From Candidatus Eiseniibacteriota bacterium (lineage in GTDB: Bacteria; Eisenbacteria; RBG-16-71-46; DASYSL01): a stretch of DNA of 29,578 nucleotides. How positions within the stretch are numbered: position 1 is the stretch's first letter; each line of letters starts with the position of its first letter. Below are positions 50-29,015 of this stretch, one piece after another. The position numbers and the translations under genes were made by a program. Below the pieces are notes generated by a model, which ran no database searches, was not told the DNA's origin, and worked only from the letters and a program-made list of their open reading frames with translations. The stretch covers positions 1-29,578 of the forward strand of contig JANPEF010000129.1 of assembly GCA_031431875.1 (NCBI GenBank), written 5' to 3'.

Positions 50-2896
<2,847 letters not shown>

Positions 2897-2906
2897 CGGA
2901 GATCGA

Positions 2907-4010
2907 ATGAAAGCGCTCGTCAAGTCGCGTCCCGCCCCCGGTGCCGAAATCCTGACGGTCCCCGATCCCACGCCTTTGGCCGACGAAGTCGTCCTCAAGG
3001 TCCGGCGCGTCGCCGTCTGCGGCACCGACCTCCACATCTACGGCTGGGATCGCTGGTCGCAGACGCGGATCAAGCCGCCGCTCGTCTTCGGCCATGAGTT
3101 CGTCGGCGAGGTCGTCGCCCTGGGCACCCGCGCCGAGGGAGTGCGACTGGGCGACCTCGTCGCCGTCGAGACGCACGTCGCCTGCACGACCTGCCACCTG
3201 TGCCGCCGCGGGCTCATGCACGTCTGCGAGCGCGTCCAGATCCTGGGCGTCGATCGCGATGGGGCGTACGCCGAGTTCGTCGCCGTGCCGGCGCGCAACT
3301 GCTGGCCGATCCCGACCGGCATGTCGATCGACCACGCCGCGGCACTCGAGCCGCTGGGCAACGCAGTGCACACCGTGCTGGCGGGGGAGATCGCTGGCTG
3401 TTCGGCCGCCGTCACCGGCTGCGGGCCGATCGGGCTGTTCTCCATTGCCGTGGCGCGCGCTTGCGGCGCCGGGCCGATCATCGCCAGCGACGTCAATCCG
3501 TATCGCCTCGAGTTGGCGAAGAAGATCGGCGCCGATGTCGTGGTCAACGTGGCGCAGGAGTCGTTCGTCGACAGGGTGCGCGATGCGACCGAGGGCCGTG
3601 GCGTCGACGTGCTGCTCGAGATGTCCGGCCACCCGCAGGCGATCCGCGACGGGCTCGAGGCGCTGCGCAACGCCGGCCGCGTCTCGCTGCTGGGCCTGCC
3701 GTCCGACCCGTTCGAGCTCGACGTCACGCGGCTCGTGATCTTCAAGGGCGCAACCGTGCAGGGAATCAACGGACGCCTCATGTTCCAGACGTGGCGGCAG
3801 ATGAACGAGCTCCTCACTTCGGGTCGCCTCGACATCTCGCCGGCGATGACGCACGTGATGCCGATCGAGGACTACGCCGCGGCGATGGACCAGCTGAAGG
3901 GCGGCTCGGCCGGGAAGATCGTGCTCCTGCCGTGGGGAGAAACGGCGAGCGGCGAAGCCGCGAAGCCGGGCGCCACCACCACCCAGCCCGCACACGCCGG
4001 ACACGCCTGA
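2907..4010 (+). CDS. tdh: L-threonine 3-dehydrogenase (Zn-dependent MDR family)
   Basis: CGTDLHI, GHEF, structural Zn CxxCxxC-x7-C, EPLGNAVHT, GCGPIG; directly coupled to kbl. Confidence 0.93.
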   Translation: MKALVKSRPAPGAEILTVPDPTPLADEVVLKVRRVAVCGTDLHIYGWDRWSQTRIKPPLVFGHEFVGEVVALGTRAEGVRLGDLVAVETHVACTTCHLCRRGLMHVCERVQILGVDRDGAYAEFVAVPARNCWPIPTGMSIDHAAALEPLGNAVHTVLAGEIAGCSAAVTGCGPIGLFSIAVARACGAGPIIASDVNPYRLELAKKIGADVVVNVAQESFVDRVRDATEGRGVDVLLEMSGHPQAIRDGLEALRNAGRVSLLGLPSDPFELDVTRLVIFKGATVQGINGRLMFQTWRQMNELLTSGRLDISPAMTHVMPIEDYAAAMDQLKGGSAGKIVLLPWGETASGEAAKPGATTTQPAHAGHA

Positions 4011-5215
4011 TGGACGCCGCGACCACTGCACGCTTGGAGGCGACGCTCGCCGAGATCAAGGCGGCCGGCTTGTGGAAGGACGAGCGCGTCATCGCGAGCC
4101 CGCAGGGCCCCGTCATCACGCTGGCCGACGGGCGCCACGTCCTCAACTTCTGCGCCAACAATTACCTGGGCCTCTCGTCCGATCCGCGCGTGGTGGCCGC
4201 CGCCCACATCGCACTCGACGCGCGCGGCTACGGCATGTCGAGCGTGCGCTTCATCTGCGGGACGCAGGACGTCCACAAGCAGCTCGAAGAGACGATCGCC
4301 CGCTTCCTCCACCTCGACGACGCGATCCTGTTCGCCGCCGCGTTCGACGCCAACGGCGGCGTCTTCGAGCCGCTCCTCGGCGAAGCGGACGCCATCATCT
4401 CCGACGAGCTCAACCACGCCTCGCTGATCGACGGCATCCGCCTGTGCAAGGCGAAGCGCTACCGGTACCGCAACAACGACCTGGCCGACCTCGCGGCCCA
4501 GCTCGTCGCCGCACGGGCCGCCGGCGCGCGCGACATCCTGATCGTCACCGACGGCGTGTTCTCGATGGACGGCTCGATCGCCGACCTGGCGGGCATCGTC
4601 GCGCTGGCGAAGCAGCACCGCGCGATGACCCTGGTCGACGACTGCCATGCGACCGGGTTCCTGGGCGTGACCGGCCGCGGCGCGACCGAGCACTGCGGCG
4701 TGCTCGGCGAGGTCGACTTCGTCACCGGGACGCTGGGCAAGGCGCTGGGCGGCGCGATGGGGGGCTTCGTCGCGGGACGCGCCCCGGCGATTGCGCTCCT
4801 GCGCCAGCGTGCGCGGCCGTACCTGTTCTCCAACACGCTCGCACCGTCGATCGTCGGCGCCTCGCTCGCCGTGTTCGCCCTGCTCGACGAAACGACCGAG
4901 CTGCGCGATCGCCTGATGGCGAACACCGCGCACTTCCGCACGGGGATCACCGCCGCCGGCTTCGACGTGAAACCCGGCGTCCATCCGATCGTGCCCATCA
5001 TGCTGCACGACGAACGCCGTGCCCACGACCTCGCGCGCCGCATGCTCGACGAGGGCATCTACGTGATCGGCTTCAGCTTCCCGGTCGTCCCCAAGGGACA
5101 GGCCCGCATCCGTGTGCAGGTCTCCGCCGCGCACACGCGCGAGCACCTCGACCGCGCGATCGCGGCGTTCACCAAGGCCGGGCGCGAGATGGGGATCCTC
5201 GGGGTCACGGCCTGA
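4010..5215 (+). CDS. kbl: 2-amino-3-ketobutyrate CoA ligase (glycine C-acetyltransferase)
   Basis: Start reassigned to the ATG overlapping the tdh stop (TGATG); NFCANNYLGLS, SVRFICGTQ, LNHASLIDG, PLP lysine in GTLGKALGG, RQRARPYLFSN. Confidence 0.95.
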   Translation: MDAATTARLEATLAEIKAAGLWKDERVIASPQGPVITLADGRHVLNFCANNYLGLSSDPRVVAAAHIALDARGYGMSSVRFICGTQDVHKQLEETIARFLHLDDAILFAAAFDANGGVFEPLLGEADAIISDELNHASLIDGIRLCKAKRYRYRNNDLADLAAQLVAARAAGARDILIVTDGVFSMDGSIADLAGIVALAKQHRAMTLVDDCHATGFLGVTGRGATEHCGVLGEVDFVTGTLGKALGGAMGGFVAGRAPAIALLRQRARPYLFSNTLAPSIVGASLAVFALLDETTELRDRLMANTAHFRTGITAAGFDVKPGVHPIVPIMLHDERRAHDLARRMLDEGIYVIGFSFPVVPKGQARIRVQVSAAHTREHLDRAIAAFTKAGREMGILGVTA

Positions 5216-5231
5216 GCGGCCCGGCGTCCCG

Positions 5232-5260
5232 TTGCGGGCCCTCGGGGCCCGTGCTAGAGT
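5232..5260 (+). promoter_or_regulatory. sigma70-type promoter for the gcv operon
   Basis: TTGCGG (5232-5237), 17-nt spacer, TAGAGT (5255-5260) with extended -10 TG at 5252-5253. Confidence 0.6.
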
Positions 5261-5271
5261 CCGGCCGAAGC

Positions 5272-5289
5272 TCGTGAACGATTTCACGA
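5272..5289. promoter_or_regulatory. Palindromic operator, Rex-box-like
   Basis: TCGTGAA-CGAT-TTCACGA: perfect 7-4-7 inverted repeat matching the Rex consensus TTGTGAA-N4-TTCACAA except for one symmetric position; lies just downstream of the predicted -10. Confidence 0.6.
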
Positions 5290-5350: not shown

Positions 5351-6448
5351 ATGACCACGCTCACCACGCCCTTCCTCGAGCACCACAAGAGGGCCGGCGC
5401 GAAGCTCATCGAGTTCGCGGGCTTTCTCATGCCTGTCTCGTATGCCGGGATCCTGGCGGAACATACGGCGGTCCGTACCGCCGCCGGCGTGTTCGACGTC
5501 TCGCACATGGGCGAGTTCGAGGTCCGCGGGAAGGACACCTGGGCCTTCATCGACAAGCTGGTGACCAACAGGGTGGGCGAGGCCGAGGTGGGCCAGGCGG
5601 TCTACACGCCGATGTGCCTGCCCGACGGCGGCATCGTCGACGACCTGCTGGCCTACCGCTTCGAGGACAGGGCGATGCTCGTCGTCAACGCCGCGAACAT
5701 CGAGGGCGACTGGGCGTGGGTGAACGAGGTGGCAAGCCGCTTCGACGTCACGCTCGAGAACGTCTCCGACCGTATCGCCCAGCTCGCCGTGCAGGGACCG
5801 CGCGCCGCCGAGATCTTTTCTGGCCTCGTCCCCGACGCCGCGCTCGACCTGGGCTACTACCGCTTCACCGGCGTCCAGCTGTGGGGGACGCCGATGGTGT
5901 TCTCGCGCACGGGCTACACCGGCGAGGACGGCTTCGAGCTCTACTTCGACGTCGACTCCGCGGACCGCGTATGGGACGAGCTGTTCAAGGCGGGGGCGAA
6001 GGTCGGACTGGCCCCGATCGGCCTCGGCGCGCGCGACAGCCTGCGGCTCGAGATGGGATTCTGCCTCTACGGTAACGACATCGACCGCACCACGCACCCG
6101 CTCGAGGCGAGCCTCGGGTGGACCGTGAAGATGGCCAAGCCCGACTTCATGGGGAAGGCCGCGATGCTCGCCGCGAAGGCGGCGGGCCTCACGCGCCGGC
6201 TCGTCGGCCTTGCCGTCGATTCGCCGCGCGTGGCGCGCCACGGCTGGGACGTGGTGAAGGACGGCTCCGTCGTCGGCACGGTCACCAGCGGCACGTCGTC
6301 GCCCACGCTGAAGAAGAGCATCGCCATGGCCTACGTGCCCGCGGCCGGAACGGCCGATGGCACCGAGTACGTCGTGCGCTCGGGTACGACCGAGCTGCCG
6401 GCCCGCGTCGTCCCACGCCCGTTCTACACCGAGGCTTCGCACCGCTGA
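5351..6448 (+). CDS. gcvT: Glycine cleavage system T protein (aminomethyltransferase)
   Basis: FDVSHMGE, GGIVDD, VVNAAN, SRTGYTGEDGFE, GLGARDSLRLEMG..LYGND. Confidence 0.97.
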   Translation: MTTLTTPFLEHHKRAGAKLIEFAGFLMPVSYAGILAEHTAVRTAAGVFDVSHMGEFEVRGKDTWAFIDKLVTNRVGEAEVGQAVYTPMCLPDGGIVDDLLAYRFEDRAMLVVNAANIEGDWAWVNEVASRFDVTLENVSDRIAQLAVQGPRAAEIFSGLVPDAALDLGYYRFTGVQLWGTPMVFSRTGYTGEDGFELYFDVDSADRVWDELFKAGAKVGLAPIGLGARDSLRLEMGFCLYGNDIDRTTHPLEASLGWTVKMAKPDFMGKAAMLAAKAAGLTRRLVGLAVDSPRVARHGWDVVKDGSVVGTVTSGTSSPTLKKSIAMAYVPAAGTADGTEYVVRSGTTELPARVVPRPFYTEASHR

Positions 6449-6484: not shown

Positions 6485-6867
6485 ATGACCCCGGACGGTC
6501 TCCGCTACACGAAGGATCACGAGTGGGCGAAGCAGGACGGCGACCTCGTCGTCGTCGGCATCACGGACTACGCGCAGGGCGAACTCGGTGACGTCGTGTT
6601 CGTCGAGCTGCCGGCCGTGGGCCGCACGGTCGCGGCCGGCGAGTCGTTCGGCACGATCGAGGCCGTGAAGACCGTGAGCGAGCTGTACGCGCCGCTGGCC
6701 GGCGAGGTCGTCGCGGTCAACGGCGACATCGCGGGCGAGCCGGCGCTGGTCAACGGCTCGCCGTACGACAAGGGCTGGATGATCAAGCTGCGCCCCGCGT
6801 CCGCCGCCGACTACGACGCGCTGCTCGACGCGAAGGCCTACTCGTCCCTCCTCGCGAGCCACGGCGC

Positions 6868-6871
<4 letters not shown>
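6485..6871 (+). CDS. gcvH: Glycine cleavage system H protein
   Basis: YTKDHEW, GITDYAQGELGDVVFVELP, lipoyl lysine in IEAVKTVSELYAP, SPYDKGW. Confidence 0.98.
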
Positions 6872-8237
<1,366 letters not shown>

Positions 8238-8241
<4 letters not shown>

Positions 8242-9833
8242 CGCCCACGACCTCGCCCCCGAGCGTCCAGTCCGGCGCCGCGCAGGCGCGCGGCACGGCC
8301 GCCGCGCCGCCGGCCCCGCCACCGGGCGCGCTGGCCGGCCTGCCGCCGGCCTCGGCACCGGTGCTGCCGCTCGTCCCCGAGGGGATCGTCGAGCCGCTGC
8401 TGTCCGAGCTCTCCGCCCCCGGCCACCGCGGCGTGCGCCTGCCGGCGTGCGACGTGCCGGCGATCCCGCTGGCGACCGCGCTCCCGGCGTGGGCGATCCG
8501 AGCGACGCGCGCGGCGCTTCCCGAGGTGAGCGAGCCCGAGGTGATCCGCCACTTCACGCGGCTCTCGGGCCTCAATCATCACCTCGACAAGGGCTTCTAT
8601 CCGCTCGGCTCGTGCACGATGAAGCACAACCCGAAGATCAACGACGAGCTCGCCTTCCTGCCCGGCATGGCGCTGGCGCATCCCTGCACGCCCGACGAGG
8701 GCCTGCAGGGCGCGCTCGAGCTGCTGTGGACGCTGGAGCGGCACCTCGCCGCGATCACCGGCTTCGACGCGGTCTCGCTGCAGCCAGCCGCCGGCGCGCA
8801 GGGCGAGTTCACCGGCATGCTCGTCGTGCGCGCCTACCACCAGTCGCGGGGCGACGTCGCGCGCGACACGGTGCTGGTGCCCGACTCGGCGCACGGCACG
8901 AACCCGGCCTCGGTCCGCGCGGTGGGCTGGAAGGTGGTCGAGCTCAAGTCGAAGGATGGCCGGCTCGACCTCGACGTGCTGAAGGCCGCGCTCGGCCCGC
9001 ACGTCGCTGCGGTCATGGTGACGCAGCCGTCGACGCTCGGCATGTTCGAGCCGCAGATCGCCGAGGCGGCCGGGATGATCCACGCCGCCGGCGCCCAGCT
9101 CTACCTCGACGGCGCGAACTTCAACGCACTGGTCGGGCTGGTGCAGCCGGGCAAGATCTTCGACGTCATGCACCTCAACCTGCACAAGACGTTCTCGACC
9201 CCGCACGGCGGCGGCGGGCCGGGCGCCGGTCCGGTCGCGGTCGGGGCGCACCTGGCGCCGTTCCTGCCGGGGCCGCGGGCGGCCCGCAATGAGGACGGCA
9301 CCTTCCGCTTCGAGCGCGACCTGCCGCAATCGGTGGGGCGTGTGCACGGCTGGCACGGCAACTTCGGCGTGCTCGTCCGCGCCTACGCCTACATCCGCTC
9401 GCTCGGCCCCGATGGGCTGACCGAGGTGTCGACCGAGGCGATCCTCAACGCGAACTACCTCATGCACCGCCTCAAGGGCGCCTACGACCTGCCGTTCGAC
9501 CGGCCGTGCATGCACGAGTTCGTGCTCTCGGGCCGCGGGCTTCGCAAGTACGGCGTGCGCACCACCGACGTGGCGAAGCGCCTGCTCGACTTCGGGGTGC
9601 ACGCGCCGACGGTGTACTTTCCGCTCATCGTCGAGGAGGCGATCATGATCGAGCCGACCGAGACCGAGACGCTGCGCACGCTCGACCTGTTCGCCGACGT
9701 CATGCTGCGCATCGCCGACGAGGCGAAGACCGACGCGTCGATCGTCACCGGCGCGCCGTGGACGACGCCGGTCTCGCGGCTCGACGAGGGACGGGCGGCG
9801 CGCGAGCTCAAGCTCACCTGGAAGAACGCGTAG
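8238..9833 (+). CDS. gcvPB: Glycine dehydrogenase (decarboxylating) subunit 2
   Basis: YPLGSCTMKHNP, SLQPAAGAQGE, AHGTNPAS, YLDGANFNA, PLP lysine in HLNLHKTFSTPHGGGGPG, EPTETE; ATG at 8238 (ATGA overlap) preceded by AAGGAGG. Confidence 0.97.
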
Positions 9834-10282
9834 CCTTCCCCGGCCCGCTGACGTGGGCGGTCGGAGCCGGCCGGGCGCGACCCGCCGCGGCGCGCTGGGG
9901 TTTGTTCGCCTGGGCGGCGGGGACCGCCGCGTGGAGCGCGTTCGGACCGCGCGGATCCCTGCCGCTGCTCGTCATCGCCGGCGTGTACCTGCTGGGTCCG
10001 CTGTGGACCGCGGCGCGCTACACGGTCGACGACGACGGTGTCGAGCGCCGCACGCCGTTCGGCACGAAGCGCTGGCCGTGGCCCGGGCTCGCGTCGTTCC
10101 GGATCGATCCGCGCGTGCGCTCCGCATGGATCACGCCGCGCGGCCGCGGCGCCGCGCGCTTCGTGCCGGCGGTGCTGCTGTTGTGGGAACCGGGGGACGA
10201 AGCGGGGGCATTCGCCGCCGAGCTGGAAGTGAGGCTGTCGGTGTATCTGCCGGGTGGGACGCGCGGGAAGGACCATGACTGA
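9818..10282 (+). CDS. Hypothetical small membrane-anchored protein (two hydrophobic segments plus a short beta-rich domain); start uncertain
   Basis: Open frame fills the gap between gcvPB and the next gene; hydrophobic WGLFAWAAGTAAWSAF and LPLLVIAGVYLLGPLW, then RYTVDDDGVERRTPFGTKRWPW (bacterial PH-like pattern). No ATG; candidate starts are GTG 9758, CTG 9818/9848, TTG 9902. Confidence 0.6.
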   Translation: MEERVAFPGPLTWAVGAGRARPAAARWGLFAWAAGTAAWSAFGPRGSLPLLVIAGVYLLGPLWTAARYTVDDDGVERRTPFGTKRWPWPGLASFRIDPRVRSAWITPRGRGAARFVPAVLLLWEPGDEAGAFAAELEVRLSVYLPGGTRGKDHD

Positions 10283-10568
10283 ATCGGCGGCTCTGCCGCC
10301 GGGAGATCAGGAGATCTTCAACCGCTTGTCCCGCTGGCTGGTCGAACGTCGCCTGGAGACGCCCGCGCTCCTGTTTCTCGAGAGCTCGCGACCGTTGTCG
10401 TTCGTGGGCTCGCAGGCGATGCACTTCTTCCAGCCGCTCGCGTCCGTCCTGTTCGCGACGCGCGACTACGAACGGCTGGCCCGGCTCCTCGAGGACCGGG
10501 ACAACTTCGAGATCCTCCTCGCGACCATCGAGCGCGAGGCCGACCGACGAGACGAGGGACGCCCATGA
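10275..10568 (+). CDS. Hypothetical small helical protein (97 aa)
   Basis: ATG at 10275 after GAAGGA; typical codon usage; overlaps both neighbours; sequence LETPALLFLESSRPLSFVGSQAMHFFQP. Confidence 0.8.
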   Translation: MTESAALPPGDQEIFNRLSRWLVERRLETPALLFLESSRPLSFVGSQAMHFFQPLASVLFATRDYERLARLLEDRDNFEILLATIEREADRRDEGRP

Positions 10569-12385
10569 GCGACACACGCGAGATCCGGTCCATCCTCGCG
10601 ACCGATTGCGGCTCCACCACGACGAAGGCGATCCTGATCGAGAAGCAGGGGGACACTTATCGCCTCGTCACCCGCGGCGAGGCCCCGACCACGGTCGAGG
10701 CGCCGTTCGAGGACGTGACCCGCGGCGTGCTCAATGCCGTGAAGGAGGTCGAGGAGCTGCGGGGCCGGAAGCTCCTCGACGGCGACCGGATCCTCACCCC
10801 GCAGGACGGCGACGAGGGCGTCGACCTCTACCTGAGCACGTCGAGCGCCGGCGGCGGGCTGCAGATGATGGTCTCGGGCCTGGTCCTGTCGATGACCGGG
10901 GAGAGCGCGCAACGCGCCGCGCTGGGCGCCGGCGCGATCGTCATGGACGTCATCGCCATCAACGACGGCCGACGGCCGCACGAGAAGATTCGTCGCCTCC
11001 GCCAGCTGCGACCCGACATGCTGCTGCTCTCGGGCGGCACCGACGGTGGCGCGGTCAAGAGCGTGGCCGAGATGGCCGAGCTGATCGCCGCAGCGAACCC
11101 CAAGGCCCGCCTCGGCGCCGGCTACGAGCTGCCCGTCGTCTACGCGGGCAACAGCGACCCGGCGGCGCGCGACATCGTGCGCCAGACGCTGGGCGACAAG
11201 ACCGCGCTGCTCATCGTCGAGAACCTGCGCCCCAAGCCCGAGGTCGAGAACCTGAAGCCCGCCCGCGACGCGATCCACGAGCTGTTCATGGAGCACGTCA
11301 TGGCGCACGCGCCGGGCTACAAGAAGCTGATGACCTGGACCGCGCAGCCGATCATGCCGACGCCCGGCGCGGTGGGCCTGATCATCGAGAAGATCGCGAA
11401 GCGCGAGGACATCACGGTGACGGGCGTCGATATCGGCGGCGCGACGACCGACGTGTTCTCGGTCTTCCAGGGGGTCTTCAACCGCACTGTGAGCGCCAAC
11501 CTGGGTATGTCGTACTCGGTGTCGAACGTGATGGCCGAGGCCGGCCTGCCCAACATCCTGCGCTGGGTGTCGTTCCCGGTCGACGAGGTGCAGCTGCGCA
11601 ACCGGATCAAGAACAAGATGATCCGCCCGACGACGATCCCCGACACGCTCGAGGAGTTGGTCATCGAGCAGGCCATCTCGCGCGAGGCGCTGCGGCTCGC
11701 CTTCGAGCAGCACAAGGCGCTGGCGGTGGGGCTCAAGGGAGTCCAGCAGGAGCGCACGATCTCGGACGTGTTCGAGCAGGACGACTCCGGCGCGACCCTG
11801 GTCAACCTGGCCGACCTGAACCTGCTCGTGGGCTCGGGCGGCGTGCTGTCGCACGCGCCGCGCCGCGTGCAGGCCGCGCTCATGATGATCGACGCATTCC
11901 TTCCCGAGTTCGTGACCGAGATCGCCGTGGACTCGATCTTCATGATGCCACAGCTCGGCGTGCTCGCCACCGTGCACGAGGAGGCCGCAACGCAGGTGTT
12001 CGACCGGGACTGCCTGATCCGGCTCGGCAGCGTGATCGCGCCGGTCGGCAACGCGAAGGACGGCGCCGCCTGCATGAAGGTCCGCCTCAAGCACCCCGAC
12101 GGTCGCGTCGAGGAGGCCGCGTGCAAGGCCGGCGAGATGAAGCTGCTCGCCCTGCCCGCCGACGGCGATGCGCGGCTCGAGCTCACGATCGAACCCGAGC
12201 GTGGGTACGACATGGGAGAGGGCAGGGGCAAACCCGTGACCGCCACCGTGCGCGGCGGCGTCGTCGGGCTCGTGCTCGACGGCCGCGGCCGCCGCCCGTT
12301 CGAATTGCCGAAGGACGACGCGAAGCGCATCGAGAAGCTGCGGGGCTGGAACCGCGCGCTCGACGTGTATCCGCGCGAACTCTAG
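10565..12385 (+). CDS. GlmL/MutL (glutamate mutase L)-like protein, ASKHA/actin-like ATPase fold
   Basis: 606 aa; phosphate-1 loop ATDCGSTTTK, STSSAGGGL, LSGGTDGG, IMPTPGAV, phosphate-2 loop GVDIGGATTDVFS, RTVSANLGM, LVGSGGVLSHAP, all typical of the GlmL family. Confidence 0.85.
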   Translation: MSDTREIRSILATDCGSTTTKAILIEKQGDTYRLVTRGEAPTTVEAPFEDVTRGVLNAVKEVEELRGRKLLDGDRILTPQDGDEGVDLYLSTSSAGGGLQMMVSGLVLSMTGESAQRAALGAGAIVMDVIAINDGRRPHEKIRRLRQLRPDMLLLSGGTDGGAVKSVAEMAELIAAANPKARLGAGYELPVVYAGNSDPAARDIVRQTLGDKTALLIVENLRPKPEVENLKPARDAIHELFMEHVMAHAPGYKKLMTWTAQPIMPTPGAVGLIIEKIAKREDITVTGVDIGGATTDVFSVFQGVFNRTVSANLGMSYSVSNVMAEAGLPNILRWVSFPVDEVQLRNRIKNKMIRPTTIPDTLEELVIEQAISREALRLAFEQHKALAVGLKGVQQERTISDVFEQDDSGATLVNLADLNLLVGSGGVLSHAPRRVQAALMMIDAFLPEFVTEIAVDSIFMMPQLGVLATVHEEAATQVFDRDCLIRLGSVIAPVGNAKDGAACMKVRLKHPDGRVEEAACKAGEMKLLALPADGDARLELTIEPERGYDMGEGRGKPVTATVRGGVVGLVLDGRGRRPFELPKDDAKRIEKLRGWNRALDVYPREL

Positions 12386-12404
12386 CCGCCGAGGAGAGAC
12401 GAAG

Positions 12405-13523
12405 ATGGCCCACGCCTACACTCCCGGACTCCGGGTCACGCCGCAGACCATCGTCCGCCGCGAACGCCGCCTGCCGCTCAAGGGCGACGTGCTCGTCGCC
12501 GTCGGCGACCGCGTAAGCGCGACCTCCGTCGTCGCGCGCACCCTGCTGCCGGGCAACGTGCAGACGGTGAACCTCGCCTCGGCGCTGGGGCTCGAACCCT
12601 CGGAGGTCGCGGGCAAGCTGGCCGTCCCGATCGGCGGCACCGTCGCCGCAGGGCAGGTCATGGCTGCGACGAAGGCCCTGTTCGGGCTCATGAAGTCCGA
12701 GGCGAAAGCACCCGCCGCGGGCACGATCGAGAGCGTTTCCGACGTCACCGGGCAGCTCATCCTGCGCGAGCCGCCCATCCCGGTCGAAATCGACGCGTTC
12801 CTCGCCGGCACCGTCGTCGAGGTGATCGCGGGGGAGGGCGTTGTCATCGAGTCGCCCGCCGCGTTCATCCAGGGCATCTTCGGCATCGGCGGCGAGACGC
12901 ATGGTCCGCTCGTGATCGCCGTCGCGGGACCGGACGACGAGCTCACCGTCGACCGCCTCACGCCGGATCTCGCGGGCAAGATCGTGGTCGGCGGTTCGTA
13001 CGTGAACCACGCCGTGCTCAAGGAGGCGATCCGCCTCGGCGTGCGCGGCGTCGTCGTCGGCGGCTTCGACGACCGCGACTTGCGCGACCTCCTGGGCTAC
13101 GACCTGGGCGTGGCGATCACGGGGCAGGAGACGCTCGGCATCACGCTCGTCCTGACCGAGGGCTTCGGCCGCATCCGGATGGCCGAGCGGACGTTTCGCC
13201 TCCTGCAGTCGCTCGAAGGCAGCGCCGCCGCCGTCAGCGGCGCGACCCAGATCCGCGCCGGCGTGATGCGCCCCGAGATCCTGGTGCCACGATCGTCGGC
13301 GGCGAGCGATGCGACGGGCGGGAGCGTCACCGGCATGGACATCGGCTCGCTGCTGCGCTGCATCCGCGGCGATCACTTCGGTCGCATCGGCCGGATCACG
13401 GCGCTGCCGGCGCCGCTGCAGGAACTGGGCAGCGAGTCGCATGCCCGCGTCCTCGAGGCCGAGATCGAGGGCGTCGGACGCGTCCTCCTGCCGCGGGCGA
13501 ACATCGAATTGATCGAGGCCTGA
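12405..13523 (+). CDS. Hypothetical protein with barrel-sandwich hybrid (lipoyl/biotinyl-like) motifs, GlmL partner
   Basis: 372 aa, GAGGAG RBS; GDVLVAVGDRV and PIGGTVAAGQVMA...SEAKAPAAGTI hybrid motifs; C-terminal IGSLLRCIRGDHFGRIGRI (KOW-like). Confidence 0.8.
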   Translation: MAHAYTPGLRVTPQTIVRRERRLPLKGDVLVAVGDRVSATSVVARTLLPGNVQTVNLASALGLEPSEVAGKLAVPIGGTVAAGQVMAATKALFGLMKSEAKAPAAGTIESVSDVTGQLILREPPIPVEIDAFLAGTVVEVIAGEGVVIESPAAFIQGIFGIGGETHGPLVIAVAGPDDELTVDRLTPDLAGKIVVGGSYVNHAVLKEAIRLGVRGVVVGGFDDRDLRDLLGYDLGVAITGQETLGITLVLTEGFGRIRMAERTFRLLQSLEGSAAAVSGATQIRAGVMRPEILVPRSSAASDATGGSVTGMDIGSLLRCIRGDHFGRIGRITALPAPLQELGSESHARVLEAEIEGVGRVLLPRANIELIEA

Positions 13524-13546
13524 TCTGGGCAGCGCGGAATCGGTGA

Positions 13547-13576
13547 TTGACAGGTCGCGAGACCGGTTGCTAGCGT
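13547..13576 (+). promoter_or_regulatory. Internal sigma70-type promoter ahead of the membrane genes
   Basis: TTGACA (13547-13552), 18-nt spacer, TAGCGT (13571-13576) with extended -10 TG. Confidence 0.6.
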
Positions 13577-13638
13577 CCACGTGCTCAGTGCGGGAGTGTC
13601 CGACCCGCGCTCGTCCCCGTCCCGCGAGGAACCGTCGG

Positions 13639-14883
13639 ATGCCTGCCCGCGCCGCCCGCGTCACGCACTCCCGTCGTCCGCTTTCCTTCCTCGACTGCAT
13701 TCCACCCCTGATTCTCACGCTCGTGCTGACCCTGGGCCTCGGCGCACCGCGCTCGGCCCGGGGCCAGGACTCGCTCGTCGTGGCCGCCGCGGTCGTGGCG
13801 GCACCGGCTCCCGCCCCGGCGGGGGGCGTGAAGGCCATCGACGTGCCGAACGACCGCGGCGACGCAATCGAGGTGACGTGGACGCCCGCGCCACAGAAAT
13901 CCGCCGGCGACGGCATCGTCACGGCGTACCTGCTCGAGCGCGCGCCCGCCGTCGAGGGCCCGTGGACGCGCGTCGACTCGGTCGGCGCCGGCACCCACAA
14001 GAAGACCGACACCGTGAAGAGCGACACGCCGTACGTCTACCGCGTCACCGCGCTCGGGGCCGGCGGGGCCGCCGCGCCGGTCGTCTCGGAGCCGGTGGAG
14101 GCCTGCGCGCAGTGGTTCAACACCGGTCGCGTCAGCGTGCTGCTTGCCATGCTTCTGTTCTTCGGCCTCGTCATCCTCTTCACCCTTCGCGCCCAGGCGG
14201 GCGAGAAGCTGTTCATTCGCCGCATCGCGGGCATCGACGCGATCGAGGAAGCGATCGGCCGCGCCACCGAGATGGGGCGCTCCGTGCTCTACGTGCCGGG
14301 CATCAACGACATCGACGACATCCAGACGATGGCCTCGCTCAACATCCTCGAGTCCGTCGCCAAGGTGACCGCCAAGTACGAGACGCCGATCGTCGTCCCC
14401 TGCAACTACCCGGTCGTCATGACGCTGGCCCAGGAGATGGTGAAGAACGGCTACGTCGCCGCCGGTCGCGCCGACGGCTACGATCCGAACTCCGTGCGTT
14501 ACGTGACCACCGAGCAGTTCGCCTACGTCGCCGCCATCACCGGCATCATGCTGCGCGACAAGCCCGCGGCGAACATCTACCTGGGCTCGTTCTACGCCGA
14601 ATCGCTGCTCCTGGCCGAAACCGGCTTCTCGACCGGGGCGATCCAGATCGCCGGCACGGCGCAGGTCGCCCAGTTGCCGTTCTTCGTCGTCGCCTGCGAC
14701 TACACGCTGATCGGCGAGGAACTGTACGCCGCCGGCGCGTACCTGACGCGCGAGCCCCGGCTGCTCGGATCGCTCAAGGGCTCCGATTACATGAAGGTCG
14801 CGCTCATCGCGGCGATCGTCGTGGGCTGCGTGCTCGAGACGATCGGCATGACCTCGTTCAAGCATTTCTTCGCCTCGCAATAG
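13639..14883 (+). CDS. Membrane protein: signal-like N-terminus, fibronectin type III domain, TM, alpha/beta domain (DUF6754-like), C-terminal TM
   Basis: ATG 13639 after GAGGA; FN3 pattern AIEVTW..AYLLER..YVYRVTA; TM VSVLLAMLLFFGLVILF; IRRIAGIDAIEEAIGRATEMG; LIGEELYAAGAYL. The DUF6754 assignment is from recall and unverified. Confidence 0.8.
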   Translation: MPARAARVTHSRRPLSFLDCIPPLILTLVLTLGLGAPRSARGQDSLVVAAAVVAAPAPAPAGGVKAIDVPNDRGDAIEVTWTPAPQKSAGDGIVTAYLLERAPAVEGPWTRVDSVGAGTHKKTDTVKSDTPYVYRVTALGAGGAAAPVVSEPVEACAQWFNTGRVSVLLAMLLFFGLVILFTLRAQAGEKLFIRRIAGIDAIEEAIGRATEMGRSVLYVPGINDIDDIQTMASLNILESVAKVTAKYETPIVVPCNYPVVMTLAQEMVKNGYVAAGRADGYDPNSVRYVTTEQFAYVAAITGIMLRDKPAANIYLGSFYAESLLLAETGFSTGAIQIAGTAQVAQLPFFVVACDYTLIGEELYAAGAYLTREPRLLGSLKGSDYMKVALIAAIVVGCVLETIGMTSFKHFFASQ

Positions 14884-14901
14884 GCGCCGGGAGAGACCGC
14901 G

Positions 14902-15558
14902 ATGATGAACCTGCTTCCCGTCGTCCTCACCGCGATCGTCGGCATCGTGGTCATCCTGTCGTTCTTCGTGCCGCATCCCTACATCGCGGAGCCGGCGCAG
15001 AAGCTGCAGGACTGGGCGATCGTCATCGTCGCCTCGGGCTACGTGCTCGGCGCGGCGAACGTCTACAAGGTCAATGGTGAGTCGGCCATCAAGCGGCAGA
15101 AGGACTGGGTCTACAAGTGGATCCTGCTCGGCTCGATGACCGGCATGATGGTCGTCGGGTTCTTCTTTTCGGGCGGGACGCAGTTCCTCAACGAGGGATC
15201 GCCGTTCAAGTGGGGCTACGACTTCCTCTACGTGCCCATGCAGGCGACGATGTTCTCGCTGCTCGCCTTCTTCATCGCTTCGGCCGCGTTCCGCGCCTTC
15301 CGCATTCGCACCGTCGACGCCGCCCTGCTGGCCGTCGCCGCGCTCGTCGTGATGATCGGGCGCGTGCCCCTGGGCAACCTGTTCACCGCCGCGTTCCCCG
15401 AGCCCATCCAGTTGCCGACCATGGCGAACTGGCTGCTCGAGTGGCCGCAGAACGCCGCCAAGCGCGGAATCGCCATTGGCGCCGGCCTGGGCGTGATGGC
15501 CACCGGGCTGCGCATCATTCTCGGCATCGAGCGCTCGCACATGCGCGAGGAGGCCTGA
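14902..15558 (+). CDS. Hypothetical integral membrane protein (~6 TM)
   Basis: 218 aa, GGAGAG RBS, multiple hydrophobic helices; FSLLAFFIASAAFRAFR; RGIAIGAGLG..LRIILGIER. Confidence 0.85.
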   Translation: MMNLLPVVLTAIVGIVVILSFFVPHPYIAEPAQKLQDWAIVIVASGYVLGAANVYKVNGESAIKRQKDWVYKWILLGSMTGMMVVGFFFSGGTQFLNEGSPFKWGYDFLYVPMQATMFSLLAFFIASAAFRAFRIRTVDAALLAVAALVVMIGRVPLGNLFTAAFPEPIQLPTMANWLLEWPQNAAKRGIAIGAGLGVMATGLRIILGIERSHMREEA

Positions 15559-15559
15559 C

Positions 15560-16393
15560 ATGGCGTTCGGCGACACCCTCGAGAAACTCGACCGCCGCTG
15601 GATCTTCCTCCTCGTCGCGCTGCTCGTCCTCATCCCGCTGCTGCGCCCGCTGCGCCTGCCGCTGGCCGTCTCCGGACCCGCGCGCAACTTCTACGAGGCG
15701 GTCGAGGCCGTCCCCGCGGGTTCGATCGTGGTCCTCGCCGGCGACTTCGACCCGGCGTCGGCGCCCGAACTGGTCCCCATGACCAAGTCCGTGGTGCGCC
15801 ACCTGTTCCGCAAGAACGTGCGCATCATCGCGCTCGAGCTGTGGGAAGGCGGGCCGCCGCTCGTCGACGCCATCCTTCACGACGTGGGCGACGAGCTGGG
15901 CAAGAAGTACGGCATCGACTATGTGAACCTCGGCTACAAGTCCGGGCGCGAGGCGGTGATGCCGTCGTTCGGCAACTCGTTCTCCCGCACGTTTCCCAAC
16001 GACTACAGCGGGACGGCGGTGTCGAAGCTGCCGCTCATGCGTGAGGCGGACACCTTCGCGCAGACGGCCCTGTTCGTGAACATCTCCGCCGGCTACCCGG
16101 GCACGAAGGAGTGGGTCCAGCAGGTGCAGGGCCGCTTCGACGTGCGGATGGTCTCGGGCTCGACGGCAGTACAGGCGCCGGAGATCTATCCGTACCTGCA
16201 GTCCGGACAGGTGGTCGGGCTGCTCGGTGGCATGGCGGGCGCCGCCGAGTACGAGAAGTCGATCAACGTCCCCGGCGCTGCCACGAAGGGCATGGACGCC
16301 CAGTCGAGCGCCCACATGTTCATCGCGTTCCTCATCCTGCTCGGCAACGCGATCTACTTCTCGCGGCGCGGCGCCGCGCGGAGGCCGTCGTGA
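15560..16393 (+). CDS. Hypothetical protein with N- and C-terminal TM helices flanking an alpha/beta domain
   Basis: 277 aa, GAGGAGG RBS; TM WIFLLVALLVLIPLL; YGIDYVNLGYKSG; GLLGGMAGAAEYE; TM HMFIAFLILLGNAIYF. Confidence 0.85.
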   Translation: MAFGDTLEKLDRRWIFLLVALLVLIPLLRPLRLPLAVSGPARNFYEAVEAVPAGSIVVLAGDFDPASAPELVPMTKSVVRHLFRKNVRIIALELWEGGPPLVDAILHDVGDELGKKYGIDYVNLGYKSGREAVMPSFGNSFSRTFPNDYSGTAVSKLPLMREADTFAQTALFVNISAGYPGTKEWVQQVQGRFDVRMVSGSTAVQAPEIYPYLQSGQVVGLLGGMAGAAEYEKSINVPGAATKGMDAQSSAHMFIAFLILLGNAIYFSRRGAARRPS

Positions 16394-17028
16394 ACATCTC
16401 CATGGATTTCGGCATCTGGGTCGCGGCGGCGCTCACGCTGTTCATCTTCTCGTTCCTCTACAAGGACAACCCGCTCTACAAGTTCGCCGAGCATCTCTTC
16501 GTCGGCGTCTCCGCGGGGTTCGTCGTCGTCCAGCAGTTCTGGCAGGTGCTGTGGCCGAACCTGATCCAGCCGGCGGTCACCAGGGGCACGCCCGAGGTGT
16601 GGAAGTTCTACGTCGGCGGCCTGCTCTGCGTCCTGCTGTTCACGCGCCTGTTCCAGGGCATCTCCTGGCTCTCGCGCTACACGATCGCCACGCTCATCGG
16701 GACGTTTGCCGGACTCAAGGTCACCGGATTCGCCCAGGCGGAAGTCGTCGAACAGGTCCGTGCCACGATGGTCCCGCTGTGGACCGGCGACCTGGGCAGC
16801 TCGATCAACAACATCATCCTCGTCGTCGGCGTGATCACCACGCTTGTGTTCTTCTTCTTCTCGAAGGAGCACAAGGGTGCGATCGGCGCGACCGCACGCG
16901 TGGGCATCTGGTACCTCATGGTCTCTTTCGGCGCCGCCTACGGGTTCACGGTGATGTCACGCATCTCGCTGCTCATCGGACGACTCATGTTCCTGCTCGA
17001 CGAATGGCTCGGGATCGTGCGCTTCTGA
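16390..17028 (+). CDS. Hypothetical integral membrane protein (~6 TM)
   Basis: GTG overlapping the previous stop (GTGA), GGAGG upstream; FSFLYKDNPLYKFAEHLFVGVSAG; many hydrophobic helices. Confidence 0.85.
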   Translation: MNISMDFGIWVAAALTLFIFSFLYKDNPLYKFAEHLFVGVSAGFVVVQQFWQVLWPNLIQPAVTRGTPEVWKFYVGGLLCVLLFTRLFQGISWLSRYTIATLIGTFAGLKVTGFAQAEVVEQVRATMVPLWTGDLGSSINNIILVVGVITTLVFFFFSKEHKGAIGATARVGIWYLMVSFGAAYGFTVMSRISLLIGRLMFLLDEWLGIVRF

Positions 17029-17831
17029 GCCTCGACTTCGATGACGTCCCGCGTCCGGGTGCGCTGCACATGGCCGACGACGCGGCACGCTTTTCAGCCG
17101 CGGAAGCTGCGCATGGTCCGCTCGCCGCCGGGCTGCGCTGGTTCACCTGGGATCGCCCCACGCTGTCGCTGGGCCGACTCGAGTCGCCCGCCGGGTTCGA
17201 TTCCGCGGCGCTCGCCGCAGCCGGCATCCCGCTCGTGGTCCGGCCCACCGGCGGCCGGGCCGTCCTCCACGTCGACGAATGGACCTACGCCGCGCTGATT
17301 CCACTCGACCATCCGACGCTGGGCGGGCCGCTCGCCCGCTCGACGCGGGCGTTGACCATGCTCATCGCCACGGCGCTCGCGGACGCCTTCGGCATCGCCT
17401 GCGATCCCGCCACGGAGGCGCGGACCCCGGTCCGCACCGGGACCGCTGTCGCGACGTGTTTCGCCCGCAGCTTCGGTTACGAACTGGGCGTGGACGGACG
17501 CAAGCTCATGGGCAGCGCCCAGCGCCGCGGGCGGCGTGCCCTGCTGCAGCAGGGGAGCCTGCTGGTCGGCCCTGGCCACGAGCGGATTGCCCGCCTGCTG
17601 CCCGGAGCACGGGCGGATCCCGCGCGCACCGCGCACGCCGAGTCCGATTTGCAGGCGCGAACCACGAATCTCACCGCGTTGCTCGGCCGGCGTCCCGACC
17701 CGCGGGCGTTCCGTGAGGCGCTCGCCGCGGCATGGCACGAGGCGGCGGGGTTGGGGCGTGACGTCCAGACCGCGCAAGGTTCCGGTCCATCCCACGCCGC
17801 GCCCCTTGACAGCCCCGGTAGACCTTCCTAA
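17004..17831 (+). CDS. Lipoate-protein ligase family protein, LipM-like octanoyltransferase
   Basis: GALHMADD, LRWFTWDRPTLSLG, VRPTGGRAVLH, CF..SFGYELGVDGRKLMGSAQ (Cys and Lys placed as in LipM), LLQQGS. Start uncertain (ATG 17004 or CTG 17025). Confidence 0.85.
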   Translation: MARDRALLSLDFDDVPRPGALHMADDAARFSAAEAAHGPLAAGLRWFTWDRPTLSLGRLESPAGFDSAALAAAGIPLVVRPTGGRAVLHVDEWTYAALIPLDHPTLGGPLARSTRALTMLIATALADAFGIACDPATEARTPVRTGTAVATCFARSFGYELGVDGRKLMGSAQRRGRRALLQQGSLLVGPGHERIARLLPGARADPARTAHAESDLQARTTNLTALLGRRPDPRAFREALAAAWHEAAGLGRDVQTAQGSGPSHAAPLDSPGRPS

Positions 17832-17834
17832 TCT
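17806..17834 (+). promoter_or_regulatory. sigma70-type promoter for the ABC transporter operon
   Basis: TTGACA (17806-17811), 17-nt spacer, TAATCT (17829-17834); overlaps the ligase stop codon. Confidence 0.7.
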
Positions 17835-17890
17835 CAAGCGTCATCGTCACTTGCATTGCAAATGGCGCACAGGCGCCGGGGGAGGAACGG

Positions 17891-19714
17891 ATGCGGAAGG
17901 GACGTCGGTGGTCCGGGAGCGCCCTGGCGCTCGTCGCGGTCGGTCTGGGGCTGCTCGTCGGTCCCGGCTGCGGGCGGAAGGAAAGCGCCCGGCCCTCGTT
18001 CGTCGACCCCCATCCCATCCCGGCCGGCGCGAACAAGCGCGCCATCGAGGGCAAGCACGGCGGCCGCTTCGTGTTCGTCACCATCGGCGACCCGAAGACC
18101 TTCAACCCGCCACTGGCCAACGAGGTCTCCTCGACCGACATCATCAACGGCCCGATGTTCGTCGGCCTGACCGCCTACAACAACGCCGACCAGCGCACCG
18201 AGCCCGGGCTCGCCGAGTCGTGGGAGGCGAGCCCCGACGGGCTCACCTACACCTTCAAGCTCCGCCCCGGTCTGCGCTGGTCCGACGGCGCCACCCTCGA
18301 CGCCGACGATGTCGTCTTCACAGCGAAGGTCTCGCTCGATCCAGCCCTGCCTGGCGCGACGCGCGACATCTTCCAGAGCGGCGGCAAGGTCTGGGAGTTC
18401 GTCAAGGTCGACAGCCTCACCATCCAGGTCAAGCTCGCCGCACCGTTCGGCCCGCTGGTCGACGTCATCGGCTCGATGTACATCGTGCCCGAGCACCGGC
18501 TGGCGGCGTCGTACGCCGACGGCACCTTCGCCTCGATGTGGGGGACCGACACGCCGCCGGCCGACATCGTGTGCAACGGGCCGTTCCGGCTCAAGGGGTT
18601 CGTCCCCGGCGAGAAGTGCGTGCTCGAGCGCAACCCGCACTACTGGGAGGTCGACCAGAACGGCTTGCGCCTGCCCTACCTCGACGAGTACGTGTTCCTC
18701 ATCGTCAAGGACCTCAACACGATGGCGCTCAAGTTCCAGGCCGGCGAGACCGACCTGATCGATCCCATCGTGCTCGACCAGGTGCCGCTGTTCGAGGACG
18801 AGGCGGAGAAGTCCGGCTACCAGGTCGTCGACCTGGGGCTCGACCTGGCGACCGACTTCATGTGGCTCAACCAGAACCCCGGCAAGGACCCGACCGGCAA
18901 GCCCTACGTCGAGCCTTACAAGCTGGCGCTGTTCCGCGACGTCCGCTTCCGCCGCGCCATCTCGCACGGCGTCAACCGCGAGGGCATCGTCAAGTCGGTG
19001 CTGCAGGGCCGCGGCGTGCCGCTGTACGAGCCGTACACGCGGACCAACAAGGCGTTCTGGAACCCGAACGTGCCGAAGTTCCCGTACGACCCGGAGAAGG
19101 CTAAGGCGCTGCTCGACGAGATGGGTCTGGTCGACAAGAACCGCGACGGCGTCCGCGAGACCCCGGCCGGCAAGCCGGTCGAGTTCACGCTGCACACGAA
19201 CTCCGAGAACAACCTGCGCAAGAGCTTCGGCACCGTCATCAGCGAGGACCTGGGCAAGATCGGCATCCGCGTCAACTTCGTGCCGCTCGAGTTCAACACG
19301 CTGATCACGCGCCTGCGGGCCGACTACCGCTACGACGCGATCCTGCTCGGGCTCGCCAGCTCGACGCCGCCCGAGGCCGCGCTGTCCGGCAACGTCTACC
19401 GCTCGAGCGGCATCACGCACAACTGGAACCCGCGGCAGAAGACACCGTCGACGCCGGCCGAGGCCGAGATCGACCGCCTCATGGACCAGTTGATCGCCGA
19501 GAGCGACATTGCCAAGCGCAAGGAGTACTTCGACCGCGTGCAGGAGATCATGGGGGAGGAGCAGTTCTCGATCTACATCGTGAACCGCAAGCTGTACGTC
19601 GGGCTGCGTGACTATGTCCGCAATGCCCGCCCCTCGGTCATCCGCCAGCACGTGACGTGGAACATCCAGGAGATCTGGGTCGACAAGGCGGACGCGAAGG
19701 TCGCGGCGCGCTGA
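17891..19714 (+). CDS. ABC transporter substrate-binding protein, family 5 (OppA/DppA-like), probable lipoprotein
   Basis: Signal with lipobox-like VGPGC; GDPKTFNP; PGLAESWEASPDGLTYTFKLRPGLRWSDG; DVRFRRAIS; YDPEKAKALL. Confidence 0.93.
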   Translation: MRKGRRWSGSALALVAVGLGLLVGPGCGRKESARPSFVDPHPIPAGANKRAIEGKHGGRFVFVTIGDPKTFNPPLANEVSSTDIINGPMFVGLTAYNNADQRTEPGLAESWEASPDGLTYTFKLRPGLRWSDGATLDADDVVFTAKVSLDPALPGATRDIFQSGGKVWEFVKVDSLTIQVKLAAPFGPLVDVIGSMYIVPEHRLAASYADGTFASMWGTDTPPADIVCNGPFRLKGFVPGEKCVLERNPHYWEVDQNGLRLPYLDEYVFLIVKDLNTMALKFQAGETDLIDPIVLDQVPLFEDEAEKSGYQVVDLGLDLATDFMWLNQNPGKDPTGKPYVEPYKLALFRDVRFRRAISHGVNREGIVKSVLQGRGVPLYEPYTRTNKAFWNPNVPKFPYDPEKAKALLDEMGLVDKNRDGVRETPAGKPVEFTLHTNSENNLRKSFGTVISEDLGKIGIRVNFVPLEFNTLITRLRADYRYDAILLGLASSTPPEAALSGNVYRSSGITHNWNPRQKTPSTPAEAEIDRLMDQLIAESDIAKRKEYFDRVQEIMGEEQFSIYIVNRKLYVGLRDYVRNARPSVIRQHVTWNIQEIWVDKADAKVAAR

Positions 19715-28703: not shown

Positions 28704-29015
28704 GTGATCCTGGGCCAGGTCGTCGGCACCGTCGTTTCGACGCGCAAGGACGCGGGGCTCTCGGGTCTCAAGCTCCTCGTCGTACGCGAGCTCGACGACG
28801 CGCTCGCTCCGACCGGCCACCTCGTCGTGTCCGCCGATGCCGTCGGCGCCGGGCGGGATGAGGTCGTCCTCGTCGTCGCCGGATCCTCGGCCCGCCTGAC
28901 CGAGGCGACGCGCGACAAACCGGTCGACTCGGTCATCGTCGGCATCGTCGACGAAGTCGAGGAGAACGGCAGCCTGGTCTATCGCAAGCAGTCGTCGCGC
29001 ACGGTGCCGGCATGA
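28704..29015 (+). CDS. Microcompartment vertex pentamer (BMC-P, EutN/CcmL family)
   Basis: GTG 28704; [52 protein letters not shown]. Confidence 0.94.

Follow-up and report, generated by a model that had tools for sequence, protein, structure and literature searches.

We have analysed a 29,578-nucleotide (nt) contig (JANPEF010000129.1, hereafter the window) from the assembly GCA_031431875.1 of a Candidatus Eiseniibacteriota bacterium, and find that eight consecutive genes within it are this genome's single copy of a widespread gene system. The eight genes follow the glycine cleavage gene gcvPB and encode two small proteins (ORF1 and s104), a GlmL-like ATPase of the ASKHA (acetate and sugar kinase/Hsc70/actin) fold, a soluble 372-residue protein (p372), and four membrane proteins (a DUF6754 protein, m218, m277 and m209). 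We have little doubt that this gene set constitutes one functional system. On balance we favour the interpretation that it represents a widespread, ATP-dependent machine of the membrane or envelope built from two parts. That the set performs ATP-driven work across the membrane we hold to be slightly short of an even proposition. The system matches no described kind: no functional description of it was found in the literature searched (subscription journals were outside the coverage), and DUF6754 is a domain without a described function. The genes of the module, numbered by their position in the window, are:

9902 (TTG; alternative CTG 9818) to 10282, plus strand: ORF1, matching PF10756 (bPH_6); start uncertain
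10275 to 10568, plus strand: s104, with no Pfam or NCBIfam match
10565 to 12385, plus strand: GlmL-like ATPase, 606 residues, matching PF13941 (411.6 bits)
12405 to 13523, plus strand: p372, 372 residues, with no Pfam family
13524 to 13638, plus strand: intergenic gap of 115 nt, read from the sequence; the sole sizeable gap, between soluble genes and membrane genes
13639 to 14883, plus strand: DUF6754 protein, matching PF20539 (387.9 bits)
14902 to 15558, plus strand: m218, polytopic with four hydrophobic segments, no family
15560 to 16393, plus strand: m277, bitopic by hydropathy, no family
16399 to 17028, plus strand: m209, polytopic by hydropathy, no family

Organization and conservation of the module

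A sequence-only reading of the window had described eight co-directional, tightly packed genes behind gcvPB, interrupted by one gap of about 115 nt. The measured spacings confirm this arrangement, being +68, -8, -4, +19, +115, +18, +1, +5 and -25 nt from gcvPB through the eight genes to the ligase-family gene that follows them, with s104 sharing 8 nt with ORF1 and 4 nt with the ATPase gene. The gap contains a GAGGAA ribosome-binding site before the ATG at 13639. The promoter that had also been placed there is unproven: a perfect TTGACA is present at 13547-13552, but the TAGCGT located 18 nt further on keeps only three of the six positions of TATAAT, and a consensus promoter scan of positions 9700-18000 called no promoter on the plus strand.

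The block had been proposed to be self-contained, and its conservation as a unit bears this out. Relatives of p372 are numerous, with 2433 representatives at E ≤ 0.001 in a library clustered at 50%, and their presence was confirmed in at least 569 of 604 pattern-matched candidate stretches of species genomes. Gene neighbourhoods were compared in the best 80 loci of the p372 genome scan by tblastn with the window proteins, and other phyla have homologues of all eight genes, arranged in the same order. Of the 62 loci with room for it, 44 have the end of the ATPase gene less than 1.5 kb upstream of p372, and among 30 loci that extend 8 kb or more to either side 17 contain the complete set of four membrane genes. 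Inversion, relocation or tandem repetition (two to three times) of the set leaves the order DUF6754-m218-m277-m209 intact, and m218 follows DUF6754 in the homologous loci examined. Parts that have become separated still share a genome. PF13941 is encoded elsewhere in four, and PF20539 in all five, of the five genomes in which p372 is not beside an ATPase gene, and two Poribacteria genomes carry the ATPase gene (65% identical to that of the window), p372 and the four membrane genes at three separate loci.

The same association is seen at the level of whole genomes. Among 251 Planctomycetota genomes DUF6754 is present in 65, p372 (profile A1) in 65 and a strong PF13941 match in 67, with all three markers occurring together in 60 of the 71 genomes that have any of them. 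DUF6754 is found in 109 of the 121 genomes sampled from the phylum of the window (a count that includes the unpublished genome G275), or in 94 of 103 high-quality genomes and 57 of 62 genera. Natural fusions join the parts within each half of the module. Two proteins (P0141, 995 residues, and P0211, 1003 residues) carry PF13941 at the N-terminus and p372 at the C-terminus, and open frames of 970-991 residues over the p372 matches of three Planctomycetota genomes point the same way. In the complete Zixibacteria chromosome G010 m277 and m209 are fused in frame within a 571-residue open reading frame (ORF; L112:3539-5254, minus strand). The copy numbers of the two halves are unequal, with a single match for PF13941 against six for DUF6754 in G010 and one against five in G009, which fits a single soluble unit serving several membrane complexes.

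The loci also show variations on the common plan. Tandem membrane sets, in two to three copies, lie beside a single ATPase/p372 pair in L113, L030 and L039 (and in L042, L052, L061, L067 and L075), and the three sets of L113 are divergent from the ATPase operon. A family of about 265 residues with no Pfam assignment (cluster c19) is encoded between the ATPase gene and p372 in the Zixibacteria/Ignavibacteriales loci L052, L053, L054, L057, L063, L070, L075 and L113. At one Planctomycetota locus (G113:C20:254535-262435) the DUF6754 and PF13941 matches are in pieces interrupted by TGA and TAA stops while the nearby p372 is intact; this copy may be a decaying module or may reflect assembly errors.

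The GlmL-like ATPase and its soluble partners

The ATPase matches PF13941 over its full length (profile positions 1-450; 411.6 bits against a cut-off of 27) and carries a C-terminal extension of about 120 residues (484-606). It is strongly conserved, with an identity of 60-77% over 31 homologues from Eisenbacteria, Zixibacteria, Fermentibacteria, WOR-3, Planctomycetota, Poribacteria and others, and a mean column identity of 66%. The segments ATDCGSTTTK, DIGGATTD and SGG.LSHAPR, which we take to be the phosphate and adenosine motifs of the ASKHA fold, are invariant in 32 ATPase sequences.

The p372 protein is the cytoplasmic partner of this ATPase. The sequence-only reading had noted lipoyl/biotinyl-like motifs in it, and this proves correct for the fold and not for the chemistry. 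An AlphaFold2 model of high confidence (predicted local distance difference test, pLDDT, 90.7; predicted TM-score 0.76) places a barrel-sandwich hybrid at residues ~49-123, a swivelling beta/beta/alpha domain at ~150-300 and a KOW/SH3-like domain at ~308-372. Structural searches of these domains with VIA-align returned matches in the range that the tool terms 'middling' and that names folds, not functions: RnfC (8ahx_C, Z 7.5) and NqrA (4u9o, Z 7.0) for the barrel-sandwich domain, enzyme I of the phosphotransferase system (PTS; 2wqd, Z 9.4), rifampin phosphotransferase (5hv1, Z 9.1) and RraA (Z 8.5) for the swivelling domain, and KOW domains (Z ~8) for the C-terminal domain. Some p372 homologues also reach the RnfC_N and NQRA_N Pfam models. 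p372 itself matches no Pfam family, including the lipoyl/biotinyl family PF00364 and the PEP-utilizers family PF00391, and across residues 70-125, which span the barrel-sandwich hairpin, there is no conserved lysine column (the best holds lysine in 24 of 47 sequences). Since the hairpin lacks a conserved modifiable lysine, p372 is not a lipoyl or biotinyl carrier and shares only the fold of such proteins; its barrel-sandwich domain should not be annotated as a lipoyl carrier. The invariant residues T251, E252, G253, T281, R284 and R289 likely mark a functional site in the swivelling domain. Two further searches were uninformative: Foldseek gave a single match at E ≤ 0.001, to NusG with a TM-score of 0.15, which we rejected as a multi-domain artefact, and the ESM Atlas returned unnamed clusters only.

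The two small proteins are also constant members of the set. ORF1 matches PF10756 (bPH_6) with an E-value of 1.9e-6 (28.2 bits) and has one strong hydrophobic segment. Clustering of 1137 ORFs from 89 loci yielded two families that precede s104, c7 (16 loci, ~150 residues) and c53 (3 loci), and a hidden Markov model built from these 19 ORFs matches ORF1 with an E-value of 1.1e-9. By its sequence ORF1 is thus a small membrane protein with a bacterial pleckstrin homology (bPH) domain and the conserved first gene of the module. Homologues of s104 lie directly upstream of the ATPase gene by tblastn, and 35 complete ORFs were recovered; the family has no match in Pfam or NCBIfam. None of nine proteins scanned with the PADLOC defence models matched a family.

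Parallels with known systems are partial for both members of the soluble pair. DdrA/GdrA, the large subunit of the diol/glycerol dehydratase reactivase, likewise combines an ASKHA ATPase with a swivelling beta/beta/alpha domain. In the present system the two reside on different polypeptides, which certain genomes fuse, the Foldseek match to 1nbw_A is weak (E 1e-2), p372 adds the barrel-sandwich and KOW domains, and the module has membrane-protein partners in place of a B12 enzyme client and a beta subunit. Besides the barrel-sandwich fold that p372 shares with RnfC and NqrA, the layout of the module is similar to that of Rnf and Na+-NQR, with a soluble subunit, two polytopic proteins of about 200 residues and one bitopic protein with an outward domain. 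However, the eight proteins match no Rnf/Nqr membrane family and no Fe-S or flavin family in Pfam or NCBIfam. Further, whereas NqrD and NqrE are related to each other, m218 and m209 are mutually unrelated (hhalign probability <1%).

The membrane subunits and the proposed machine

The DUF6754 protein matches PF20539 with 387.9 bits against a cut-off of 27. It begins with a signal sequence or transmembrane (TM) helix, followed by an FN3 domain (~56-157), a TM helix (~162-186), a very conserved alpha/beta domain and C-terminal helices. Its AlphaFold2 model has a pLDDT of 69.5 with the FN3 domain confidently folded, and that domain finds structural matches at Z ~13. The conserved alpha/beta domain would face the cytoplasm, given the position of the FN3 domain and the positive charges that follow the TM helix. 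Profile searches of the PDB and a fold search with the model recovered FN3 domains only, and an ESM Atlas search with the DUF6754 domain gave no usable match. The outward part of the protein is variable: among 120 long forms listed, PQQ/BamB-like propellers are present in 49 and FN3 in 12, and Planctomycetota proteins contain about 1000 residues that are unassigned to any family.

The remaining subunits, m218, m277 and m209, each have two to four hydrophobic segments over the hydropathy cut-off and match no family in Pfam or NCBIfam. m277 has a TM segment at each end, and the intervening domain of about 220 residues is predicted to be periplasmic or otherwise outward, because the positive charges flank both helices on the outer sides of the sequence. 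m209 contains invariant motifs (alignment A4). PDB profile searches with the alignments of the three proteins gave nothing significant, the matches of m218 to K+ channels being at chance level (E ≥ 0.2), and scanning each aligned sequence against Pfam at E ≤ 1 revealed no recurring weak family. By hhalign DUF6754 and m277 are unrelated, as are m218 and m209. The DUF6754 protein matches only PF20539 and FN3 in Pfam and NCBIfam, and no membrane subunit matches a model of a known transporter family (ABC, MFS, TRAP, PTS permeases and others), an outcome that the sequence-only reading had named as one that would refute it. A structure prediction for the complex of DUF6754 (residues 160-414), m218, m277 and m209 scored 0.59, as against 0.60 with m277 swapped for an unrelated protein, and we have counted this result neither way.

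From these elements we envisage a machine of two parts. The first, cytoplasmic, part would be the GlmL-like ASKHA ATPase bound to p372, together with s104 and the small bPH membrane protein; the second would be a complex of DUF6754, m218, m277 and m209, in which the FN3 and m277 domains project outward from the cytoplasmic membrane and the conserved DUF6754 alpha/beta domain faces the cytoplasm. The ATPase-p372 pair might dock on the cytoplasmic face of this complex, either at the DUF6754 domain or at conserved loops of m209 or m218. ATP binding and hydrolysis by the pair would then change the membrane complex, which in turn would work across the membrane through its outward domains, in transport or in mechanical or assembly work in the envelope. 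The inferred elements are the contact between the soluble and membrane parts, the activity of the ATPase, and what work is done and in which direction. This model retains from the sequence-only reading the conserved self-contained unit, the lack of a mutase partner and the lack of a transporter family, and abandons its coupling through lipoylated carriers and its required link to glycine/threonine metabolism. A bolder version, possible though doubtful, is that this would be the first ASKHA-powered membrane machine, in which one conserved ATPase-partner pair docks on interchangeable four-subunit complexes, of which a genome may have as many as six, to drive transport or mechanical envelope work; the outward domain would differ between complexes, being FN3, a propeller or a giant domain.

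Several observations weigh against this interpretation. We know of no precedent for an ASKHA ATPase driving a membrane complex, and searching the PDB sequences with the ATPase returned nothing beyond a chance match (E 0.68). The soluble and membrane halves are linked by co-occurrence and gene order only, and we found no fusion joining the two. The Planctomycetota co-occurrence has a Fisher p of ~1e-48, a figure that ignores relatedness and reads only as 'strongly clustered together', and 11 of the 71 genomes with any part lack at least one, although these are likely incomplete metagenome-assembled genomes (MAGs). Finally, the conserved DUF6754 segment 316-359 is folded at low confidence.

Were the soluble pair to drive the membrane complex, this would be a new mode of coupling ATP to transmembrane work in bacteria, and a class of primary energy coupling apart from ATP-binding cassette (ABC), P-type and rotary ATPases and from the proton-driven Tol/Ton/Mot stators. 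A run of genes annotated as 'hypothetical' in many uncultured phyla (the Fibrobacterota-Chlorobiota-Bacteroidota (FCB) group, Planctomycetota, Poribacteria and others) would find its explanation as well.

Alternative roles and genomic setting

The family name of the ATPase suggests that it could be a reactivase or chaperone of a coenzyme-B12 mutase encoded elsewhere. It belongs to PF13941, as do GlmL/MutL of glutamate mutase operons and Or-4, with which it shares the ASKHA fold and a full-length match, and its genome contains five B12-binding-domain matches, three of them above the family cut-off. This explanation is nevertheless largely refuted already, and we find it barely credible. The ATPase scores below all three curated cut-offs (213.5/475 for GlmL NF040745, 204.1/600 for Or-4 NF040744 and 159.8/204.05 for the GlmL family TIGR01319) and differs from those proteins in its C-terminal extension. 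As the sequence-only reading had noted for the window, no B12-binding or mutase domain was recognised among the 34 window ORFs scanned, and the 98.45% complete genome has no Met_asp_mut_E (PF06368, glutamate mutase E). PF06368 is likewise absent from all 60 Planctomycetota genomes with the three marker genes (ornithine and lysine aminomutases were not searched for), so that the possibility raised earlier, that genomes with this clade always encode a cognate B12 mutase elsewhere, fails for glutamate mutase there and in the genome of the window, the aminomutases standing outside that search. Three of the 251 Planctomycetota genomes do encode PF06368 (G017, G059 and G206), none of them among the 60, and in G059 and G206 glmE has a PF13941 gene as its neighbour, the true GlmL arrangement, while both DUF6754 and p372 are missing. 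The window-type ATPase is never beside glmE in the genomes checked and has instead constant partners (p372, s104 and the four membrane proteins) that true GlmL lacks. 'Glutamate mutase L' is therefore a misnomer for this clade: the ATPase is 60-77% identical between phyla, yet databases name it after a B12 enzyme that these genomes lack. To our knowledge the function of true GlmL is itself unproven. A distinctly improbable alternative makes the soluble pair an enzyme rather than a motor, with a hydantoinase-like ASKHA protein phosphorylating or activating a small molecule and the swivelling domain of p372 carrying the group to the membrane complex, as in PTS, pyruvate phosphate dikinase (PPDK) and rifampin phosphotransferase. 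Residues ~150-300 of p372 do find their closest structural matches among mobile phospho-carrier domains (Z 9.1-9.4), the ATPase has weak matches to hydantoinase/oxoprolinase families in the Pfam scan, and the invariant residues of p372 suggest an active or binding site. Against this, p372 lacks a PEP-utilizers match, its invariant columns (alignment A1) include no histidine, so that the catalytic histidine position of the carrier-domain motif is presumably not kept, its nucleotide-binding partner is an ASKHA protein and not the ATP-grasp domain of PPDK-type systems, and Z values of 8-9 are only middling on the tool's scale.

The position of the module within a glycine cleavage operon raises a different possibility, namely that it serves glycine cleavage or lipoylated proteins, either as a membrane partner or service machine for GcvH/GcvP or in the uptake of glycine, lipoate or octanoate. 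This would explain the embedding between gcvPB and the ligase gene, and in the window the tdh-kbl-gcvTHP-module-ligase run is indeed co-directional with short gaps. More widely, 19 of 35 loci with room have gcvP no more than 2.5 kb upstream of the ATPase gene, and in 10 of 23 the gene after m209 is a ligase gene. The gcv-linked lineages do carry the module inside a gcvTHP...ligase operon. The other 16 of the 35 loci have different neighbours and no gcv: in Zixibacteria pth-rpsF-ssb-rplI lie upstream and a tolQ/exbB-exbD-TonB_C-TolB-OmpA-TPR run downstream, while loci of the WOR-3/Stahlbacteria type (L056, L062, L079, L080, L082) neighbour topA, accA and era. When 47 ATPase sequences are placed in a tree, the 24 gcv-linked rows all fall in one 34-row clade with an SH-aLRT (Shimodaira-Hasegawa-like approximate likelihood ratio test) support of 99. 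(Five rows of the tree are unlabelled for gcv owing to short upstream sequence, two rows with in-frame stops were dropped, and L006, with an overlong 785-residue ORF, was left out.) The gcv label needs at least five changes on this tree, of which well-supported branches force only one, so that a single ancestral gcv arrangement with later losses is possible. The ATPase of L012, labelled Candidatus Dormiibacterota, nests within Eisenbacteria next to L014 on a very short branch (0.035), for which reason it is not counted as an independent phylum; the contig may be mis-binned or mislabelled rather than an inter-phylum transfer.

Besides the lack of a conserved lysine in p372, which speaks against the earlier idea of coupling through lipoylated carriers, the genome has its own lipA (370 bits; cut-off 310), an authentic lipoamide dehydrogenase (548 bits; cut-off 408.8) and, beside the latter gene, a second ligase-family gene with an LplA/LipB-type catalytic domain (G000:C119:15613-17668). 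With these three present the genome needs neither lipoate import nor a substitute L-protein. We accordingly rejected the module both as an L-protein replacement, a real lipoamide dehydrogenase being present, and as the lipoate importer of an auxotroph, lipA being present. The two ligase-family genes suggest a division of labour between two lipoyl/octanoyl transferases. Nor is a necessary link to glycine/threonine catabolism supported, since the modules of Zixibacteria, Ignavibacteriales, Planctomycetota and Poribacteria lie by ribosomal or Tol-Pal genes or are dispersed over three loci, and gcv-linked copies are confined to one clade. Placement between gcvPB and the ligase gene is thus an arrangement kept in one clade and not a requirement of the system, its cause is probably shared ancestry rather than shared chemistry, and service to glycine cleavage is improbable.

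A purely mechanical or assembly role in the envelope, in which no solute is moved and the machine is an ATP-driven counterpart of Tol-Pal or of MacB/LolCDE/FtsEX, is unlikely but has to be taken seriously, because Tol/Ton-type neighbours recur in three lineages and the outward binding domains are variable. The tolQ-to-TPR run described above directly follows p372 in five Zixibacteria/Ignavibacteriales loci, and in loci of the Fermentibacteria type a TonB-dependent receptor and exbB-exbD-tonB come after the membrane set. Two Planctomycetota loci have a PD40 (TolB-like) propeller gene between the ATPase gene and p372 (L109:724-1794 and L110:12381-13421) and an OmpA/coiled-coil gene after m209, with a MoxR AAA gene nearby in L110; their DUF6754 proteins are 1272-1312 residues long, the N-terminal ~1000 residues being without a Pfam family. 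The outward part of DUF6754 thus takes FN3, propeller and ~1000-residue forms, as a variable protein-binding module would. On the other side, Tol-Pal genes are housekeeping genes that lie beside many unrelated operons, the neighbourhoods vary between phyla, and nothing points directly to an envelope substrate. Further, some members are labelled Chloroflexota, Eremiobacterota and Armatimonadetes, not all of which may have an outer membrane, and the sole Dormibacterota locus may be mis-binned. We use type VII ABC mechanotransmission (MacB, LolCDE, FtsEX) and Tol-Pal as a working analogy only for the proposed two-part machine: these systems too combine a cytoplasmic energy input with a membrane complex bearing outward domains, and Tol-Pal/TonB genes are often near the module, but in Pfam and NCBIfam scans the module contains no P-loop ATPase and no FtsX, MotA or ExbD member.

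The window has a G+C content of 70%, and among named sequences its proteins lie closest to those of 'Candidatus Eisenbacteria' MAGs. Outside the module it contains the following features:

50 to 2896, plus strand: uvrA, from Pfam/NCBIfam scans
2907 to 4010, plus strand: tdh, NF003808, 441.1 bits against a cut-off of 380
4010 to 5215, plus strand: kbl, Aminotran_1_2 in the frame of ORF 3200-5215
5351 to 6448, plus strand: gcvT, Pfam GCV_T
6485 to 6871, plus strand: gcvH, Pfam GCV_H
6868 to 8241, plus strand: gcvPA, Pfam GDC-P family scan
8238 to 9833, plus strand: gcvPB, Pfam GDC-P/GcvP2_C
17004 or 17070 to 17831, plus strand: lipoate/octanoyl ligase-family gene (LplA/LipM/LipL type), LplA-B_cat 66.4 bits
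17891 to 23832, plus strand: Opp/Dpp-type peptide ABC system of five genes (SBP_bac_5, two BPD_transp_1, two ABC_tran/oligo_HPY)
23799 to 25379, plus strand: iPGM, from family scans
29012 to 29569, plus strand: ORF with two BMC (bacterial microcompartment shell) domains, PF00936, E 1e-30

The tdh stop codon ends on the first base of the kbl ATG at 4010; a 401-residue ORF without a family at 4072-5277 on the plus strand was rejected as a gene, lying in the wrong frame over kbl. The ligase-family gene scores 66.4 bits for LplA-B_cat against a cut-off of 27 and 34.8 bits for BPL_LplA_LipB, and is far under the cut-off of the NCBIfam LplA models (20.4/480); it is context, outside the conserved module. 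Directly 3' of it is the Opp/Dpp-type ABC system. The BMC-domain ORF stands at the end of the contig, and a microcompartment locus may extend past it.

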